From positions 37,245 to 101,244 of IMG/VR virus record IMGVR_UViG_3300020442_000013: a stretch of DNA of 64,000 nt. One strand, given 5' to 3'. A model generated the notes under the pieces. That model was not told the origin of the DNA. It searched no databases and saw nothing but the letters and a program-made list of their open reading frames with translations. The translations under genes and the position numbers were made by a program. The stretch's first letter is position 1; each line of letters begins with the position of its first letter. Origin of the DNA: a virus. Of the stretch, positions 2 through 13,262 are shown piece after piece.

Positions 2-862
2 TACTGACTTAGGTTTGATTGCTCTAAACAATCTACGCATTGCTGGTGATTCACCTTGTGTTACTCCTAGCACGTCTCCGCGACTCAACAAGTCGCTGGT
101 GGCTTTGTCTTCTTTGGGATAGTGTCTCAGTTGTGTTACACCATCTATTTCTAGCAGTTGGCTCAGTCCTCTATTGGCTAGTATATCAACCTTTAGATGT
201 TCTAAGTCTTCTACTTCATATTTGTCTAATAATATTTGATTGTCTTGTGATATTAGTGATTTTGGTAATTGCCTTGTAAACATTACTATGCCTCCACAAT
301 GTTTTGATATTGCTCTTTTCTTACCCATCAGTTTGCCTTCTATACGTTTGGCTTCTTTAGGGTCTACGCCTACTGAATCGTAGGTAAAGTTACGAGGAAG
401 ATTACCTGTGGCTCCAAGTCGCTTGGCAGCTTCTCGGCGGGCTGACTTTTCCTTATAGGTCACATAGTTGCTTAACCTTGCCGTCATGCCTGGCCACTTT
501 TTGAATATGCGTTCCATTACTTCTGTTTGACGCCAATGTTCAAAGTCTATATCAACATCGGGCAGGTCGTCCCTCAAAGGGTTCATAAACCGTGCCACAG
601 GTATACTCCACTCTATAGGGTCTACATCTGTAATACCCAATAGGTAGCATACAAGACTACTACCAGCAGAGCCTCTAGTCATATGAGTAAGGTCTGTAGT
701 TAAGTCTATGATGTCGCAGATTTGTATGAAGTAATCAGTGAAACGCTGGTTAAGAATTAATTCAAATTCTTCTGCCAACCGAGTTTGATATATGTTTCCG
801 GGTGGGATAGGCCTTTTAAATCTATCTAATAGCCTTTGTATGTTTTCTAAATCTGTTGCCAT
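2..862 (-). CDS. dnaE: DNA polymerase III alpha (family C, DnaE-like) lacking the PHP domain; 3' end runs off the window
   Basis: Not in the ORF track; translated by hand from ATG at 862: MATDLENIQ...RLAEEFELI...FTDYF...TRGSAGSSLVCYLLGITDVDP...RFMNPLRDDLPDVDIDF...SKHCGG...LKVDIL...QGESPAMRRLFRAIKP. All DnaE palm motifs are present. Confidence 0.9.
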   Translation of the reverse strand, partial: MATDLENIQRLLDRFKRPIPPGNIYQTRLAEEFELILNQRFTDYFIQICDIIDLTTDLTHMTRGSAGSSLVCYLLGITDVDPIEWSIPVARFMNPLRDDLPDVDIDFEHWRQTEVMERIFKKWPGMTARLSNYVTYKEKSARREAAKRLGATGNLPRNFTYDSVGVDPKEAKRIEGKLMGKKRAISKHCGGIVMFTRQLPKSLISQDNQILLDKYEVEDLEHLKVDILANRGLSQLLEIDGVTQLRHYPKEDKATSDLLSRGDVLGVTQGESPAMRRLFRAIKPKSV

Positions 863-1480: not shown

Positions 1481-2908
1481 CTATTCATCTCCTAGATTAT
1501 TTAAAAATTGTCTTAGTTTTGTAGAATCTGTTTCAGCCCTTATTTTTCCTACAGTATCTCCTTTGCTTGGATCAACATCTTCTTCGTTGGCAGGTTCTGC
1601 TGTAGATGATCTTTTCAAGCTATCATAAATTGTTGACTTGCGTTTGTTAAATTCTTGATAATCATCATCTTCTGCTAAATCTCTAATACGCAAACTGTCT
1701 ACATCAAATTCAAGATCAACTTTTGCACCTACACCACTAGAACTTCTAGTTTTCATTAACTGTATTTGATATCTACCACGTTCACGCATAGCTCTACTTG
1801 TAAAGATACCAATCACGTTATCAGCAGTTTGAATCTTACTAAGGCCACCACTAATATGCGAATGATCAAATTCTATTTCTTCTACTGCACCTCTATTCAA
1901 TTGTGCCGCAGTAACAAAGACTGTATTCAACTCCATTGCTAGATTACGTAGTTCTTCTGATACAAACTTATCTTTAATAAACAAGTTTTCTGCACTTACC
2001 CTTGCACCATTAGGCATAAGCAAATCAAGATAATCAATCAATAACACATCAATCTTGCGTCCTGTTTTAATTTCATATTCTTTGATATAACTTCTTACAT
2101 CATTAGGAGTCTTACCACTAGGCATATACTTGACTTGGAATGCCCCAGACTTCTTACCTATCATTTTTACTTTCATCTCAACATCATCTATTGATTTGAA
2201 AATATCACGAGTTGGAATATCTGTAACCATACTATCAACACGCATACTAACCAAGTTCTCAGAAAGTTCAAGAGTTAAGTATAAAACGTTCATACCTGCT
2301 AGTGCCCAGTTAACTCCTAAGTTTGCTAAGAACAAACTCTTACCTGCACCAGAACCACCTGCAAATATATTCAGTTCTCCTCTATTGAAACCACCGAATA
2401 GTTTTTTATCTAAACTTGCCCAGCCAGTTGTAACCTGTCCGTTATTATCTTTAATTGCTGTTAGTCTAGCCTTAGGATCTTTCCAATAGTCTGTGCCTAA
2501 GTCTTTTTGCAATCCAATTTGTACTGCCTTCTTTACCAAGTCTTCTACTGGACCATACTCTCCCTTTTCAAGCAAGTCTGCACCTTTCAGTATCGCCGAT
2601 TCTAGTGCTTTGTGTCTACTAAAAGTTTCAAACTCTGCTAGTAGCCAATCATAATGATTTTCTGCTAACTCACCAGGATGTTTTAGATCTGCTTTGGTTG
2701 CGGCATTGATTATATCAAAAGTAGGAAGTGCGTTATGTTCACTTACGTAGTCATTTAAAAATTTTGCTGTTTCTTGTAGACGTCTATCAAACGCTCTATG
2801 ATCAAATACACTTTGACATCTTACAAATGTTTCAGCATCAGTAAGCATCATTTCTAGATATACTTTTTGTATATCATATCCATAATCTGTATTTTGTCTA
2901 GTTGCCAT
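1481..2908 (-). CDS. gp41: Replicative DNA helicase (DnaB/T4 gp41-like)
   Basis: Walker A GGSGAGKS, LIDYLDL, TAAQLNR, KTR motifs. Confidence 0.93.
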   Translation of the reverse strand: MATRQNTDYGYDIQKVYLEMMLTDAETFVRCQSVFDHRAFDRRLQETAKFLNDYVSEHNALPTFDIINAATKADLKHPGELAENHYDWLLAEFETFSRHKALESAILKGADLLEKGEYGPVEDLVKKAVQIGLQKDLGTDYWKDPKARLTAIKDNNGQVTTGWASLDKKLFGGFNRGELNIFAGGSGAGKSLFLANLGVNWALAGMNVLYLTLELSENLVSMRVDSMVTDIPTRDIFKSIDDVEMKVKMIGKKSGAFQVKYMPSGKTPNDVRSYIKEYEIKTGRKIDVLLIDYLDLLMPNGARVSAENLFIKDKFVSEELRNLAMELNTVFVTAAQLNRGAVEEIEFDHSHISGGLSKIQTADNVIGIFTSRAMRERGRYQIQLMKTRSSSGVGAKVDLEFDVDSLRIRDLAEDDDYQEFNKRKSTIYDSLKRSSTAEPANEEDVDPSKGDTVGKIRAETDSTKLRQFLNNLGDE

Positions 2909-4924: not shown

Positions 4925-5068
4925 CTATTTGTAGATATAAGGATCTTTTTTCTTCATAGCCTTAATCTTTTTTTGATATTCTCTTTCTTCCTTCCAGTCA
5001 TCATATCTTGCGATCCAATACTTGATAGGAAAGGTTACCATATCTATTATAGCTTTTAACCAAACCAT
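4925..5068 (-). CDS. Small hypothetical protein (47 aa) ending KKKDPYIYK
   Basis: Hand-read ORF with AAGGAG SD; basic C-terminus. Confidence 0.6.
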   Translation of the reverse strand: MVWLKAIIDMVTFPIKYWIARYDDWKEEREYQKKIKAMKKKDPYIYK

Positions 5069-6036
5069 TTTTTCTCCTTTAGTCTTATTTTTAAAGGACT
5101 TGTTTCTACAGCACTAACAATTTTATGTAGTGCATATAGACGTCCGTGTTTGTTAACTGCTTCACCTATGTCGTTTATATTTTCACCCCAGTCGGGCATA
5201 GAAACTCCCCAACCTAAATCAATTGCTTCTTGAATTAATTTAGATCCTGCCTCATCTCTATCAGGTACGACAATAACATCTTTATTTAATCTGTTTATAA
5301 GCATCGCTTGTTGATCTTTGATTTCGCTTCCTAACAACGCAACTCCTTCTATGTGTATTGCATCTAATGGACCTTCGCATACAATAGTAAAAACTTTGTT
5401 AGGACTTTGTTCATCTAAATTGAATACGTAACCTGGTTGTTGTTCTGACAAGTACTTAGGTTTCTTATCATTTAATACTGTTCTCGCAGTCCACCCAACA
5501 ATACGTTTTTCAAAATAAAATGGAATAATCAATCTATCTCTATAGCCTAAGTTAGATGACCAAAAATATTTTGTATCATCTAAGTTTAGATTTCTTGTAG
5601 CCATATAATTTAATACAGCCATACTATGTTTGTCAAAATCTTTTATACTTGAAATTTCAATAGAGTTATCAGGTAAGTCTACAGTATTAAACTTCGGTAG
5701 ATCAACAATTTGTTTTTTAATCTGTACACCTTCATTTTCTTGCATGACTTGTAGTGCAAGTTTATTAATTACATCATCTGGTGCATTTAACCATTTCAAC
5801 AAGTTTCTAAATTTGTAAGATATATTACGTCCTGGCTGCCAGCTGGCCTTGAATCCGCAATTGAAACAATGATAACTTAGAGCATCACCTTCTTGTATGA
5901 TGCCGCCTCGTTGTCTTGTATCAACGGATTGGCCATTATGCTGACAACACGGAGCATTGAAGGAGATCCAACCGCTAGGCGTTTTTTTACGCTTAGGCGG
6001 AAGATATGTCAGAACTGTCTCGGCTACAATACTCAT
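5056..6036 (-). CDS. gp61: DNA primase (T4 gp61-like)
   Basis: N-terminal Zn-binding APCC...HCFNCG; TOPRIM CEGPLDA and PDRDEAG. Confidence 0.9.
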   Translation of the reverse strand: MSIVAETVLTYLPPKRKKTPSGWISFNAPCCQHNGQSVDTRQRGGIIQEGDALSYHCFNCGFKASWQPGRNISYKFRNLLKWLNAPDDVINKLALQVMQENEGVQIKKQIVDLPKFNTVDLPDNSIEISSIKDFDKHSMAVLNYMATRNLNLDDTKYFWSSNLGYRDRLIIPFYFEKRIVGWTARTVLNDKKPKYLSEQQPGYVFNLDEQSPNKVFTIVCEGPLDAIHIEGVALLGSEIKDQQAMLINRLNKDVIVVPDRDEAGSKLIQEAIDLGWGVSMPDWGENINDIGEAVNKHGRLYALHKIVSAVETSPLKIRLKEKKWFG

Positions 6037-7264: not shown

Positions 7265-7484
7265 CGTATTTTATATACCTGTAGTATATATAATCAAATA
7301 AAATAGTATTAAAAAGCAAACCAATTGCTGTAATCTGAAAACCGATCAAAAACGGTAAAAGCCAAAGCCAAAGAAACATTTTCACCAAATAATCTGTAAC
7401 AAAGATTTTGGGCACTATATATGTTCGCCAAGGTCCTAGTTCTGGTTTTTTATTTGGTCTATAATCTTCAAATTCCCAATTCAT
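7245..7484 (-). CDS. Small membrane protein
   Basis: 79 aa with a hydrophobic central region; ATGA overlap with the upstream gene. Confidence 0.5.
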   Translation of the reverse strand: MNWEFEDYRPNKKPELGPWRTYIVPKIFVTDYLVKMFLWLWLLPFLIGFQITAIGLLFNTILFDYIYYRYIKYVTSSGA

Positions 7485-8164
7485 CTATTCTCCCACTCTT
7501 GTTTATCTAATATAATATACCAAGCTCGATACGGCTTGGCCATTGAGTTATTTCTTAATCTATCTTTGCCGGATCTATTTTTTTCAGGCCACCACAAAAA
7601 AGGTTGAACACTCTCTGGAAATACTTTTTTATTTGCTATACTACCCCAATTTGTTTTCCAAAATAGTCTACTTGTATATTTAAAAATCTCATTTATAAAA
7701 TATTCATAGTCAAATAATTCGTCTGGATATTTGTTCTCGTAACCACCTGGTAGTTCTTCTCTATCAAAAACTGATCTTGTAATTGTAATCATATCATAAT
7801 TTTTTGGTAATACAATAGGTTTTTTATTTTTTATTTCTAACAAGTGTCGAGGTGTTTTCATTTTTGCAAACATTTGTTGGTACAAACCACCGTCGAATGT
7901 TGATTTTACATCAGTTGCTTCTACTTCTATATCGTACCAATAATTTAAAAGCACACCTAATAATCCTACACCTGCACCTATATCACATACAGTTTTAACA
8001 TTCTCTATATCCATATGTTGTATGCAAAATTGTTTTTCATTATAGTAGTTCCAAAAGTTTTTGGAATACTTATAACCTTCTTCGTAGATAGTTTTGCCTG
8101 TTTCGTCTCTTTCTGATTTTACTTCAAGCTCGTCTAAAAATTTTCTAAACTTTTCTATGTTCAT
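7481..8164 (-). CDS. Class I SAM-dependent methyltransferase-like protein
   Basis: Motif I VCDIGAGVG, acidic residue after strand 2 (ATDV), YDMI. Confidence 0.7.
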   Translation of the reverse strand: MNIEKFRKFLDELEVKSERDETGKTIYEEGYKYSKNFWNYYNEKQFCIQHMDIENVKTVCDIGAGVGLLGVLLNYWYDIEVEATDVKSTFDGGLYQQMFAKMKTPRHLLEIKNKKPIVLPKNYDMITITRSVFDREELPGGYENKYPDELFDYEYFINEIFKYTSRLFWKTNWGSIANKKVFPESVQPFLWWPEKNRSGKDRLRNNSMAKPYRAWYIILDKQEWENR

Positions 8165-8717
8165 CTAATTGCTCGCATAGTAAATTCATATGAACAACAC
8201 ATGACATGGCGTAGGCTACTGCATGTGCTTTCTTAAAATAATATTCACCGTCTTTTGGTTTTGTCCAAACAGTTTTCATTATCGTTGGCCACGGCTGACT
8301 TGCTAGATGTCTCTTTGCTGGTCTTATTATTGCTAGTGTCGCCGCCAATTGTTCTACCGAGGTAGGTTTCAAGCGTTTCAAGAGATCGCTGTGACCGCTT
8401 AGATGAAATACTTGATCTACGAAGTCTTTGTGCTCCAAAAGTTCCCATATTGGTTTCCTTTCCATTAATGTCTGTAAGTGGGCTTCGTCTTTAATGTCTT
8501 TGTATATGCTGACATTAAGAAAGTCTAACTTAAAGTATCCGCGATCTTCTGCGTCTTTATAGTCAATTGTCGATAAATTATCTACGGGATTGTGTGGAAT
8601 TTCTGTTACATAAACACCCGTATTGTGTTTTTTGTTTGTATCTAATTTTGCTATTCTATGATCTATCAAAGAAAGAATTTGTTCTCTATCTGCAAAGTCT
8701 ATATCTATATCAGGCAT
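8145..8717 (-). CDS. Minimal DnaE-like (family C polymerase) core fragment, 190 aa
   Basis: Starts directly at catalytic MPDIDIDF, then KKHNTGVY, GYFKLDFL, KPTSVEQLAATLAIIRP and YYFKKAHAVAYA. Confidence 0.85.
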   Translation of the reverse strand: MPDIDIDFADREQILSLIDHRIAKLDTNKKHNTGVYVTEIPHNPVDNLSTIDYKDAEDRGYFKLDFLNVSIYKDIKDEAHLQTLMERKPIWELLEHKDFVDQVFHLSGHSDLLKRLKPTSVEQLAATLAIIRPAKRHLASQPWPTIMKTVWTKPKDGEYYFKKAHAVAYAMSCVVHMNLLCEQLDEHRKV

Positions 8718-8868
8718 TTATTTTTTCCTTGCATTTCTTTCCGTGTTCTTTATTATAATCATATTCACTAACTTGTTTTTTGCATATTTCACAGGTATGA
8801 TCTTTCCATTCCTTGCGTCTTCTTTTTAATTCAGCCCAATATTTAGGATGTCTAAATTCATGCGCCAT
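8710..8868 (-). CDS. Small zinc-finger-like protein (52 aa)
   Basis: Hand-read ORF MAHEFRHPKY...CEICKK...EHGKKC...; overlaps both neighbours. Confidence 0.5.
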   Translation of the reverse strand: MAHEFRHPKYWAELKRRRKEWKDHTCEICKKQVSEYDYNKEHGKKCKEKINA

Positions 8869-9359
8869 TATTTTCTTTCAAGTTTTTTTGCTTTCTTCTT
8901 AGCCATATCCCATTTTAATTTTGATACTCTATCTTTAAATGTTATGCCTTGCAAATGATCCCACTCGTGTAAAAAACATTTTGCTGAGTATCCTGATATC
9001 TTAGTACTTACCTCTTTCAAATTTTCATCGTACCATTTTGCGAGTATTTCTTTTGGTCTAGTTACTTTTACAAATACATTAGGAAAACTTAGACAGCCTT
9101 CAATGTCTTGTGTTGTTTCTTCGGTGTGTTGTAATACAACTGGATTAATTACAAGTATAGCATTTTCTTTTGTGTCACCCATTACAAATACTTGTGCATC
9201 CATACCTATCTGACTTGCACTTAAACCTATGCCGTGATTTTCAAGCATAAAGTTTGTCATATTTTCTTTTAATTCTTTAGGATCAAAAGATGGATTCTTG
9301 ATATCTACATCTTTTAATTTTTTTTCTAAAAACTCATCCGGGTGATATATTAGTTTCAT
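8868..9359 (-). CDS. def: Peptide deformylase
   Basis: GIGLSASQIG, EGCLS and HEWDHLQG motifs. Confidence 0.95.
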   Translation of the reverse strand: MKLIYHPDEFLEKKLKDVDIKNPSFDPKELKENMTNFMLENHGIGLSASQIGMDAQVFVMGDTKENAILVINPVVLQHTEETTQDIEGCLSFPNVFVKVTRPKEILAKWYDENLKEVSTKISGYSAKCFLHEWDHLQGITFKDRVSKLKWDMAKKKAKKLERK

Positions 9360-10045: not shown

Positions 10046-10502
10046 TCTCAATCCCGTGTTCTTCTGCAAGTTCTTTAAGTTCTTTTTTTGTAGATATTGT
10101 AGCAAGTAATTCAACCTCTTTTTGTTTCATGTTAGGGTAAATTTGTTCTAAAAATTTTATTACAGCATTATTATTGGCGCCTTTTTTCTTAAAGCCTATA
10201 TACGGATGGAATTTTATTTTACCCCAAGCACCGCTCATACATAACAGTTGCCACATAAGTTCTTGATGTCCATTTTCTCTACCTACACCTATTGTATTAA
10301 AGTGCTTATTGTAGTATTCATTTGTTTTGAATACTGCGAGCTCCATTTCTTCTCTAGACCCTTGTACGGCGCTTATATAGCGATTAAGAAGCCAAAAAGA
10401 CACCTGTTTACGTTCTTCAATAGAAAGTTCTTTCCATACATTTTTGGCATTCATATCAATTGCCGCTAGTATATCTTTTATTGGGAGTTTCTGCGATGCC
10501 AT
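10032..10502 (-). CDS. Putative clamp-loader small subunit (T4 gp62-like)
   Basis: Size, FWLLNRYIS and FHPYIGFKKK segments resemble gp62-type proteins; replication context. Confidence 0.5.
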   Translation of the reverse strand: MASQKLPIKDILAAIDMNAKNVWKELSIEERKQVSFWLLNRYISAVQGSREEMELAVFKTNEYYNKHFNTIGVGRENGHQELMWQLLCMSGAWGKIKFHPYIGFKKKGANNNAVIKFLEQIYPNMKQKEVELLATISTKKELKELAEEHGIENAKF

Positions 10503-11170
10503 TCTTCAAGTTCCTCAGGAGTGTTTATTTCCATGCCATTAAAATCAACTTCAAACACAGACATACTGTATCCATTCTGTAACCATCTCAGTTGTTCTAA
10601 TTTTTCAATTTGCTCTTCTGTATATTGCATCAAATTTTTGTAATTTGTTAGTGCTTCTTTTGTATATCCGTATACACCAAGATGATGTGAACCATACTCA
10701 AGACTAGATCTACAAAACCAATGTGCTTTGTTATCTGTATGTATAAGTTTAACACTATTAGGATCTTTTTGCAAGTCCTTATTCATCTTTGTATACACGG
10801 TCACAACGTCCTCGCTCAAAGCAAGTCCATTTGCAATACTTTTAATTATTTCAACTGTTATGTCTGGCATGTCACCTTGAACATTGATAATACCATCGTA
10901 AGAATCTAGCATAGGAAAAGCAGAGCATCTTTCTGTGCCGTTATCATAATATTTCTCCATATAAAAGCAGTCGCCTTCAGGAAATAAACTATGCACACGT
11001 TTGCTATCTGTTAAAACATATACGGGAAATCCTGATTCCTTACATCTGTCATAAACTCTTTTTACCATTGGTTTTCCGTTAAGTAAAGCAATAGGTTTTT
11101 CAGGAAATCTAGTACTACCCATTCTTGCAGGAATACAAATTGCATAATTTAAATTTTTATGTTTCATCAT
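10478..11170 (-). CDS. kdsB: 3-deoxy-manno-octulosonate cytidylyltransferase (CMP-Kdo synthetase)
   Basis: IPARMGSTRFPEKP, NGTER, INVQGD, HLGVYGY, EKLEQLRWL. Confidence 0.9.
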   Translation of the reverse strand: MMKHKNLNYAICIPARMGSTRFPEKPIALLNGKPMVKRVYDRCKESGFPVYVLTDSKRVHSLFPEGDCFYMEKYYDNGTERCSAFPMLDSYDGIINVQGDMPDITVEIIKSIANGLALSEDVVTVYTKMNKDLQKDPNSVKLIHTDNKAHWFCRSSLEYGSHHLGVYGYTKEALTNYKNLMQYTEEQIEKLEQLRWLQNGYSMSVFEVDFNGMEINTPEELEEWHRRNSQ

Positions 11171-11969: not shown

Positions 11970-13262
11970 TTACACGGCTACGAAATAAACTACACTTATT
12001 GCTGCTATAGCTAGGCTACCTGCATTAAGTTCATCATGCTTACCACTAAGTGCTTTGATAACTGCATAAGCAATAAAGCCTAATGCAATACCATGAGCAA
12101 TACTAAAAGTCAACGGCATAAGCACAGCCGCTAATACTGCTGGTGCATACTCAGTAACATCATCCCAATCAATGTCTGCAATGTTACGTAAAAAGTATGT
12201 GGCAATAAAGATTAATGCTGGTGCTGTTGCAAATGCTGGAATACTTTGTGCTAGTGGAGCAAAGAATAAGCAAGCCGCAAACAATACTGCTACTGTTACA
12301 GCCGTTAATCCTGTTTTACCACCTTCTTTGATTCCTGCACCGCTTTCAATATACGATGTGGTATTCGATGTACCAACTAAGGCTCCTGCTGAAGTAGCTA
12401 CAGAGTCTGCTAGTAAGGCTCTATCGATACCTTCTACTTCTCCATCATCATTAACTTTTCCTGTCAGATTAGCAACACTAGTAAGTGTTCCTGCCGTATC
12501 AAAAAAGTCAACAAACAAAAATGCAAAAGCAGTACCAATAAATCCTGCGGTAGCAATCATACTAAAGTCTAAACTAAAAGCATGTTCTGGACTAGGAATA
12601 GCACCTGCAAATCCGTTTAGATCAGCAATACCAAAAATCCAAGCAATAATACTTACTGCAAGAATACCAATAATAATTGCACCTGGTACTTTACGTTTGT
12701 CAAGCATTGCCATAATAACAAAACCAAGTCCTGTTAGTAACACAGGCCAACTTGCAACATCGCCTAACCCTACAAGTGTTGCTGGATTGTCAACTACTAC
12801 GCCTGCATTTTTCAAACCAATAATGGCTAGAAAAAGCCCAATACCTGCACCTACACCCAATTTCATTGATTTGGGAATACTATTAATAATGTATTTACGA
12901 GCTGGTGTTACACTCAGTCCGATAAACACAATACCGGCTACAAATACTGCTGCCAATGCTTGTTGGAATGTATAACCCATTCCAAAGATTACACCAAACG
13001 TAAAGAACGCATTAAGTCCCATACCTGGTGCTAGTGCTACAGGCCAATTAGCCCATAACCCCATTATCAGGGTACCGATCACTGCGGCAATGATAGTTGC
13101 CGTAAAGACAGCGCCAAAGCCCATACCTGTTCCTTCTGTTGAAAGAATAGCTGGGTTGACTACAGTAATATAAGCCATCGTAAGAAAAGTTGCGATACCT
13201 GCCATTACTTCTGTCCTAACGGTAGTTTTGGCTTTTTCAAGCCCAAAGAGTTTTTCTAACAT
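11970..13262 (-). CDS. NCS2/AzgA-family purine (adenine/guanine/hypoxanthine) permease
   Basis: TTVRTEVMAG.ATFLTMAYI..VNP, APGMGLNAFF, DFFDTAGTL, TSYIESGAGIKEGGKTGLTA; many TM helices. Confidence 0.93.
   Translation of the reverse strand: MLEKLFGLEKAKTTVRTEVMAGIATFLTMAYITVVNPAILSTEGTGMGFGAVFTATIIAAVIGTLIMGLWANWPVALAPGMGLNAFFTFGVIFGMGYTFQQALAAVFVAGIVFIGLSVTPARKYIINSIPKSMKLGVGAGIGLFLAIIGLKNAGVVVDNPATLVGLGDVASWPVLLTGLGFVIMAMLDKRKVPGAIIIGILAVSIIAWIFGIADLNGFAGAIPSPEHAFSLDFSMIATAGFIGTAFAFLFVDFFDTAGTLTSVANLTGKVNDDGEVEGIDRALLADSVATSAGALVGTSNTTSYIESGAGIKEGGKTGLTAVTVAVLFAACLFFAPLAQSIPAFATAPALIFIATYFLRNIADIDWDDVTEYAPAVLAAVLMPLTFSIAHGIALGFIAYAVIKALSGKHDELNAGSLAIAAISVVYFVAV

Follow-up and report, generated by a model that had tools for sequence, protein, structure and literature searches.

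A 190-residue protein of an uncultured marine phage as the probable C-unit of a split minimal family C DNA polymerase

Introduction

Cyanobacterial DnaE, such as that of Synechocystis, is a family C polymerase whose coding sequence is divided between two genes far from each other, and its two parts, DnaE-n and DnaE-c, are joined by a split intein. A split minimal DNA polymerase III alpha (Pol III alpha) of phages was described from sequence by Iyer, Anantharaman, Krishnan, Burroughs and Aravind (2021, Viruses 13:63, PMC7824862). According to the same work, jumbo phages of group 2.2 (RaK2/PA5oct/Atu_ph07-type) carry a phage-specific minimal Pol III alpha together with a family B polymerase. The C-terminal piece, or C-unit, corresponds to protein family PHROG 11778 (annotated 'DNA polymerase') and to EST35_0220 of phage PA5oct, and the coding sequence in phage Phosso is annotated 'DnaE-like DNA polymerase III alpha'. 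The N-terminal piece, or N-unit, is encoded far away. We found no biochemical or genetic test of this family in the literature, and neither the PA5oct omics paper nor a 2026 jumbo-phage review contains anything on expression or function of the two units.

Other phages reduce family C differently. Single-chain DnaE-like proteins lacking the PHP domain, annotated for example in Streptomyces, Rhizobium and Cronobacter phages, are also reduced family C cores, but unlike the C-unit they retain the RGS motif, the DxD motif, the thumb and the greater part of the fingers within a single polypeptide.

Here we analyze a 64,000-nucleotide stretch of DNA (the window) from an IMG/VR virus record of 101,244 bp that is estimated to be 29% complete. 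Its genes include a T4-type primase, a DnaB helicase, a large terminase, a tail sheath protein and a peptide deformylase. We conclude that a 190-aa gene of the window very probably encodes the C-unit of the minimal family C polymerase that group 2.2 jumbo phages have in two pieces, an enzyme that would serve as an accessory DNA polymerase. The arrangement is real and it is not new, given the description by Iyer et al., the PHROG family and several annotated GenBank phage records. The protein matches the published C-unit in length, in its start at the DxD strand and in its invariant residues, and its gene lies in the same primase/helicase neighborhood. Unlike the published split members, it comes from an uncultured marine lineage, its N-unit is outside the record, and an unsplit DnaE of 549 aa is also present. 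This coexistence with an unsplit DnaE is the only feature particular to this member.

Results and discussion

The C-terminal (Mg2+-/template-binding) unit is encoded on the minus strand at positions 8145-8717 by an ORF of 190 aa, complete from ATG to stop, and was recognized by its motifs, PHROG 11778, residue conservation, dN/dS and modeled fold. The gene sits in a long run of same-strand genes and overlaps both adjoining ORFs by a few bases. The protein contains, all in DnaE order, MPDIDIDF (residues 1-8), KHNTG (30-34), FKLDFL (62-67), IIRP (130-133) and FKKAHAVAYA (160-169). Its very first residues, M1-P2-D3-I4-D5, are the catalytic DxD strand, preceded by neither an upstream palm segment nor an intein. 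Comparison with PDB sequences using phmmer aligned residues 1-12 with residues 413-424 of Mycobacterium tuberculosis DnaE1 (5lew), residues 52-135 with 568-664 and residues 144-172 with 759-788. Relative to DnaE1, the thumb (~100 residues) and a fingers sub-domain (~86 residues) are cleanly deleted, and nothing corresponds to the part beyond approximately residue 805. The only Pfam match, to DNA_pol3_finger, is sub-threshold, and Pfam and motif inspection detected no PHP, RGS, clamp-binding, HhH or OB part in the 190 aa. An earlier note on this DNA had listed the motifs PDIDIDF, KHxxG, KLDFL and FxKxHAxAYA, all of which are indeed in the ORF; the 5lew alignment and the Pfam search likewise bear out its statements that thumb and fingers sequence is deleted and that PHP, RGS, HhH and OB parts are missing.

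The protein shares with bacterial DnaE (E. coli 2hnh, T. aquaticus 2hpi and 3e0d, M. tuberculosis DnaE1 5lew) and with PolC (3f2c) a Pol-beta-like palm, the motifs PDxDxDF and K.D and the fingers motifs RP and KSHA, and its fold matches these enzymes exclusively. It differs from them in being one sixth of their length, in having an active site divided over two chains and in lacking the PHP, thumb, clamp-binding, HhH, OB and tau-binding parts. The 190 aa alone do not make up a complete family C enzyme, as the GS motif and the three carboxylates are not in one chain.

PHROG 11778 matches the C-unit over its full length (E 2.3e-60; residues 3-183 on profile positions 8-194 of 197), and an exhaustive HMMER search of 1.84 billion proteins returned 433 cluster representatives at E <= 1e-3; both results place the match far beyond chance. 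Among the best 150 of the 433, proteins matching the whole query are nearly all 183-219 aa long, and the match begins within their first 16 residues, mostly within the first 10. The ORF is intact, at 185-201 aa, in all of the 80 best IMG/VR loci, and in 77 of these 80 relatives it is 185-197 aa long with a methionine directly before PD.D.DF. Pairwise Nei-Gojobori comparison of the relatives gave a median dN/dS of 0.11 (0.15 for pairs with dS < 1). Across 76 homologues of 30-55% identity, D3, D5, D7, K63, D65, R132 and P133 are invariant, and H31, G34, K135, K162 and H165 are at least 90% conserved. The earlier note had proposed dN/dS among homologues as a check and had argued from the clean deletions with retained catalytic motifs that the gene is no pseudogene; the purifying selection and the 80 undisrupted ORFs uphold that argument.

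A tblastn search found a relative of the C-unit in 96 phage records, and the matches listed are all jumbo-phage genomes or fragments of them. Identity is 53% to PA5oct-like phages, 51% to Phosso, 48% to Atu_ph07 and 37-38% to RaK2/121Q-like phages. The family extends over alphaproteobacterial, gammaproteobacterial and marine phages. The split mini-Pol III is very abundant in aquatic viromes, with more than 546 IMG/VR loci related to the C-unit (70-89% identity) and at least 8000 N-unit clusters.

AlphaFold2 modeled the C-unit with high confidence (pLDDT 96.7, pTM 0.88). In a Foldseek comparison with the PDB, Pol III alpha and PolC structures account for all of the 16 best hits (among them 5lew, 7pu7, 4iqj, 2hpi, 3e0d and 2hnh); the TM score on the C-unit query is ~0.5 because of the deletions. 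Of the palm, the model contains the DxD strand (D3, D5) and the strand of the third carboxylate (K63, D65), followed by cut-down fingers (IRP.K, K162..H165).

The counterpart of the C-unit is found in its relatives. The only PF07733 match that we found in Phosso is to an ORF of 177 aa; it ends ...GVGRGSSVASYVLFLIGIHRVNSITYELDFDEFLN and lies 224 kb away from the C-unit. Two close marine relatives on 236-kb contigs, G002 and G003, encode a 185-aa ORF that ends ...GVGRGSSVASYVLYLIGVHRINSIQYGLDWREFLR (EFLR) and covers PF07733 positions 19-95. This GVGRGSS protein, the N-unit, stops at PF07733 position 95 and the C-unit starts at 95/96; the end of one meets the start of the other without overlap or gap, leaving no room for intein halves. 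All 77 N-units from a further IMG/VR scan, 150-209 aa long, end with EFL[KR] and a stop, and the C-unit starts at the catalytic motif; split-intein halves are thus absent at the break. The arrangement resembles cyanobacterial split DnaE in that a family C polymerase is encoded in two distant genes, and differs from it in having no intein. Unlike the cyanobacterial break, the cut of the split Pol III runs through the catalytic palm, and hence the pieces would have to stay two chains.

On the contigs, N-unit and C-unit are 122 kb (G002) and 226 kb (G003) apart, and across relatives their separation ranges from ~34 to 226 kb. N-units occur in 99 phage records, whose hosts cover the same spectrum as those of the C-unit records. 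When a natural N+C fusion (P0092, see below) was used as the tblastn query, it matched 186 places in 96 records of the phage collection, with both halves together at none of them; the two units thus occur together almost one to one, in about 96 cultured jumbo phages. The genes next to the N-unit are conserved too: first a small ORF, then a gene for a GroES-like (Cpn10) protein (L085:1762-2908, L086:1759-2912; EST35_0289-0290 in PA5oct). This neighborhood is common to the marine relatives, PA5oct and, apparently, Phosso; in the marine relatives a gene for a MazG/PRA-PH-like pyrophosphohydrolase comes after the GroES-like gene.

Natural fusions of the two units also exist. The exhaustive search recovered P0092, a protein of 375 aa whose residues 190-369 match the C-unit, and a second search added P0154 and P0155 (376 aa each, 78-81% identity), which come from different sources. 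All three are metagenomic proteins and represent independent fused sequences. In all of them the layout ...GVGRGSS...KEFIK-DNKEGIYNI-ADFDIDT... corresponds to the N-unit, a nine-residue linker and the C-unit. P0092 was modeled from a checked alignment of the fusions with 40 N-units and 18 C-units, since a joint MAFFT alignment placed the N-units correctly only with at most 18 C-units. AlphaFold2 predicted a single compact domain (pLDDT 90.1, pTM 0.88), and confidence was low at the linker only. The model aligns with DnaE1 over 330 of 375 residues (Z 21.6, rmsd 4.6 Å), with the T. aquaticus ternary complex at Z 20.1 and with PolC at Z 17.8; Z then drops to 3.5 for the fold class that comes next (MenT4, Cid1). 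These results agree with the proposal of the earlier note that the gene belongs to a natively split, intein-free mini-polymerase, which is supported by the N-unit in relatives, by co-occurrence and by the fusions.

A quick IQ-TREE phylogeny of C-units groups the three fusions in a single clade (SH-aLRT 100) within a 12-row clade of split forms (95). The 12-row clade nests among split forms, and the two unsplit outgroups, whose branches are very long, join elsewhere. Because the fusions are nested within split lineages, fusion looks secondary, and the fused protein may tentatively be regarded as derived from split forms. We found no fused N+C forms in IMG/VR.

A further candidate for a fusion, P0003 (425 aa, on a 1405-bp ENA contig), was rejected. 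Its N-terminal part is reverse-transcriptase-like, with motifs resembling ...TVDFDSLYTRIP... and GLGMGTSLAS, and is joined in frame to C-unit residues 40-184. P0003 has no Pfam match and is probably an assembly chimera or the product of a retroelement insertion into a C-unit gene.

The earlier note had also suggested a search for a short ORF with G.GRGS ending just before the PDIDIDF position. Such an ORF exists in the relatives, as the 185-aa N-unit, whereas there is none in the 101-kb record: searches with PF07733, the Phosso N-unit and the N-unit of a close relative returned only the 549-aa DnaE and the C-unit itself. In the coding direction of the C-unit, 122 kb separate it from the downstream N-unit in G002, and here only ~45 kb of record remain on that side; truncation of the record would explain the missing gene, and we attribute the absence to it. 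The partner in this phage is accordingly inferred from relatives. A family B polymerase was found in G002 and G003, and was not found in the present 101-kb, 29% complete record.

The 549-aa protein is an unsplit, PHP-less, DnaE-like polymerase encoded on the minus strand at window positions 2-862 and continuing off the window (L001:538-2187). It starts at position 862, immediately preceded by genes for DnaB and a 2OG-Fe(II) oxygenase-like protein, and matches PF07733 at 141.5 bits (138 in the genome scan) and the fingers domain. Like the single-chain PHP-less enzymes of other phages, it has the thumb and most of the fingers in the same chain as the RGS and DxD motifs. With its own RGS, PDVDIDF and KVDIL motifs, its palm is complete. 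It is the only RGS-bearing gene in the 101-kb record and lies 7.3 kb from the C-unit, with which it shares 28% local identity (over 116 residues). The best match in the phage collection is in an uncultured 484-kb phage (LR756508.1, 36%), and at least 309 relatives exist in IMG/VR. Seven of 80 relatives have the gene no more than 10 kb from the C-unit. The five largest relatives (147-262 kb) lack it; all five have the C-unit, and two of them the N-unit. We found no contig with the unsplit DnaE gene and both units of the split enzyme, and none of the available contigs bearing the unsplit gene is long enough to show such a combination. As a candidate for the missing half of the C-unit, the 549-aa DnaE was rejected on account of its own catalytic aspartates. 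By its motifs it is a separate, complete enzyme and not the partner, and the split enzyme may be redundant beside it.

By itself the C-unit has only part of a Pol-beta-like palm, namely the metal-binding strands, together with trimmed fingers. From these data we infer that the triphosphate-binding GRGS helix/loop and the preceding part of the palm would come from the separately translated 185-aa N-unit encoded far away, and the two chains would dock non-covalently, without an intein, into one active site. The completed Pol-beta-type site is predicted to extend a primer with dNTPs. Thumb, clamp-binding, HhH, OB and PHP parts are all missing from the core, and relatives possess a T4-type family B polymerase; the role would therefore be that of an accessory enzyme of low processivity rather than the main replicase. 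Most likely it belongs to a replication/repair module, where it would serve gap filling, primer extension or repair. An accessory role was also suggested by Iyer et al. (2021, PMC7824862). Templated DNA synthesis by this core is putative, since the thumb, the bulk of the fingers and every domain that holds the duplex have been lost.

The same losses leave some room for a different function of the two chains. The heterodimer might have been repurposed as a template-independent or non-replicative nucleotidyltransferase and no longer be a DNA polymerase; terminal transfer, primer tailing, synthesis of a nucleotide second messenger and nucleotidylation of protein or DNA are the options. The parts that hold primer and template (thumb, clamp-binding, HhH, OB) are all absent, relatives already have a full family B replicase, and beyond Pol III alpha the fused model has only Pol-beta-type nucleotidyltransferases as neighbors (MenT4, Cid1; Z 3-3.5). 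Yet R132, P133, K135, K162 and H165 are near-invariant, and these belong to the fingers motifs that in Pol III alpha, we assume, face the incoming dNTP and the template. The gene also lies beside primase and helicase in all lineages examined, and the fused model follows Pol III alpha over 330 of its 375 residues, which makes repurposing unlikely. For this marine sub-lineage it would mean that, among three coexisting cores, namely a T4-type family B polymerase (seen in relatives only), the unsplit 549-aa DnaE and the split mini-Pol III, the last is a two-chain nucleotidyltransferase that has left replication for a new job; we hold this, too, to be improbable. Candidate jobs would be making a nucleotide signal or, at the primase/helicase complex, tailing or extending primers; with the two halves in separate genes, the phage might govern the timing of active-site assembly.

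Readings that do without the N-unit, or without a function, fare worse. The C-unit could work with or regulate the 549-aa DnaE, as an alternative catalytic module or a dominant-negative subunit. That protein is encoded by the sole RGS-bearing gene of the record and by a gene near the C-unit in 7 of 80 relatives, but its palm already contains PDVDIDF and KVDIL, only 28% identity over 116 residues connects the two, the five largest relatives have the C-unit without it (two of them with an N-unit) and cultured phages pair the C-unit with the N-unit; such a pairing is very improbable. Slimmer still is the chance that the C-unit acts as a partner-free minimal polymerase or nucleotidyltransferase: it has all three acidic residues and a confident fold on its own in silico, yet the triphosphate-binding GS motif, a defining feature of the Pol-beta-type fold, is missing from it, and the near one-to-one co-occurrence with the N-unit and the natural fusions speak for a partner. 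Decay of a full-length dnaE, which a length below one fifth of DnaE might suggest, has practically no likelihood and is refuted by the dN/dS of 0.11, the 80 of 80 intact ORFs and their constant length and start. Moreover, neither the ORFs of the window nor the PF07733 search of the record revealed a DnaE-like coding remnant adjoining the C-unit, and the family spans alpha- and gammaproteobacterial as well as marine phages.

If the two chains form an active enzyme as in our preferred reading, a two-piece accessory DNA polymerase, this would be a very small family C core of ~375 residues in total, with an intein-free catalytic fold made of two polypeptides, and a natural minimal model for the working and evolution of Pol III alpha. 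The rare natural one-piece versions (375-376 aa) offer a simple construct for activity work. Some marine members, like the present one, carry an unsplit DnaE beside the split enzyme.

The genomic setting of the C-unit is conserved. In all lineages examined it lies a few genes before the primase and a DnaB-type helicase. In the window these are a DnaG/T4 gp61-type primase at 5056-6036 (minus strand; Toprim_2, phrog_47), a conserved neighbor of the C-unit in the replication module, and the DnaB-type replicative helicase of the module at 1481-2908 (minus strand; DnaB_C E 3.7e-20, synteny with Phosso). In both the window and Phosso, the C-unit is followed by an opposite-strand ORF, a structural protein gene, the primase and the DnaB-type helicase; PA5oct shares this series up to the primase, and its next gene is annotated only as 'hypothetical protein'.

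Several other genes around the C-unit were noted. An ORF of 227 aa at 7481-8164 (minus strand) overlaps the stop of the C-unit by 20 bases and contains a glycine-rich VCDIGAGVGLLG motif like motif I of SAM-methyltransferases; it has no Pfam or PHROG match and no counterpart at the same position in PA5oct or Phosso. Just upstream of the C-unit are a phage peptide deformylase (8868-9359, minus strand, E 9e-41) and a CMP-KDO-synthetase-like cytidylyltransferase (10478-11170, minus strand, E 1e-25). Within the phage gene array, positions 11970-13262 (minus strand) encode a xanthine/uracil-family permease of 430 aa (Xan_ur_permease, E 1.6e-51). The G+C content of this gene is slightly above that of its surroundings, and an auxiliary gene of the transporter type is unusual for a phage.
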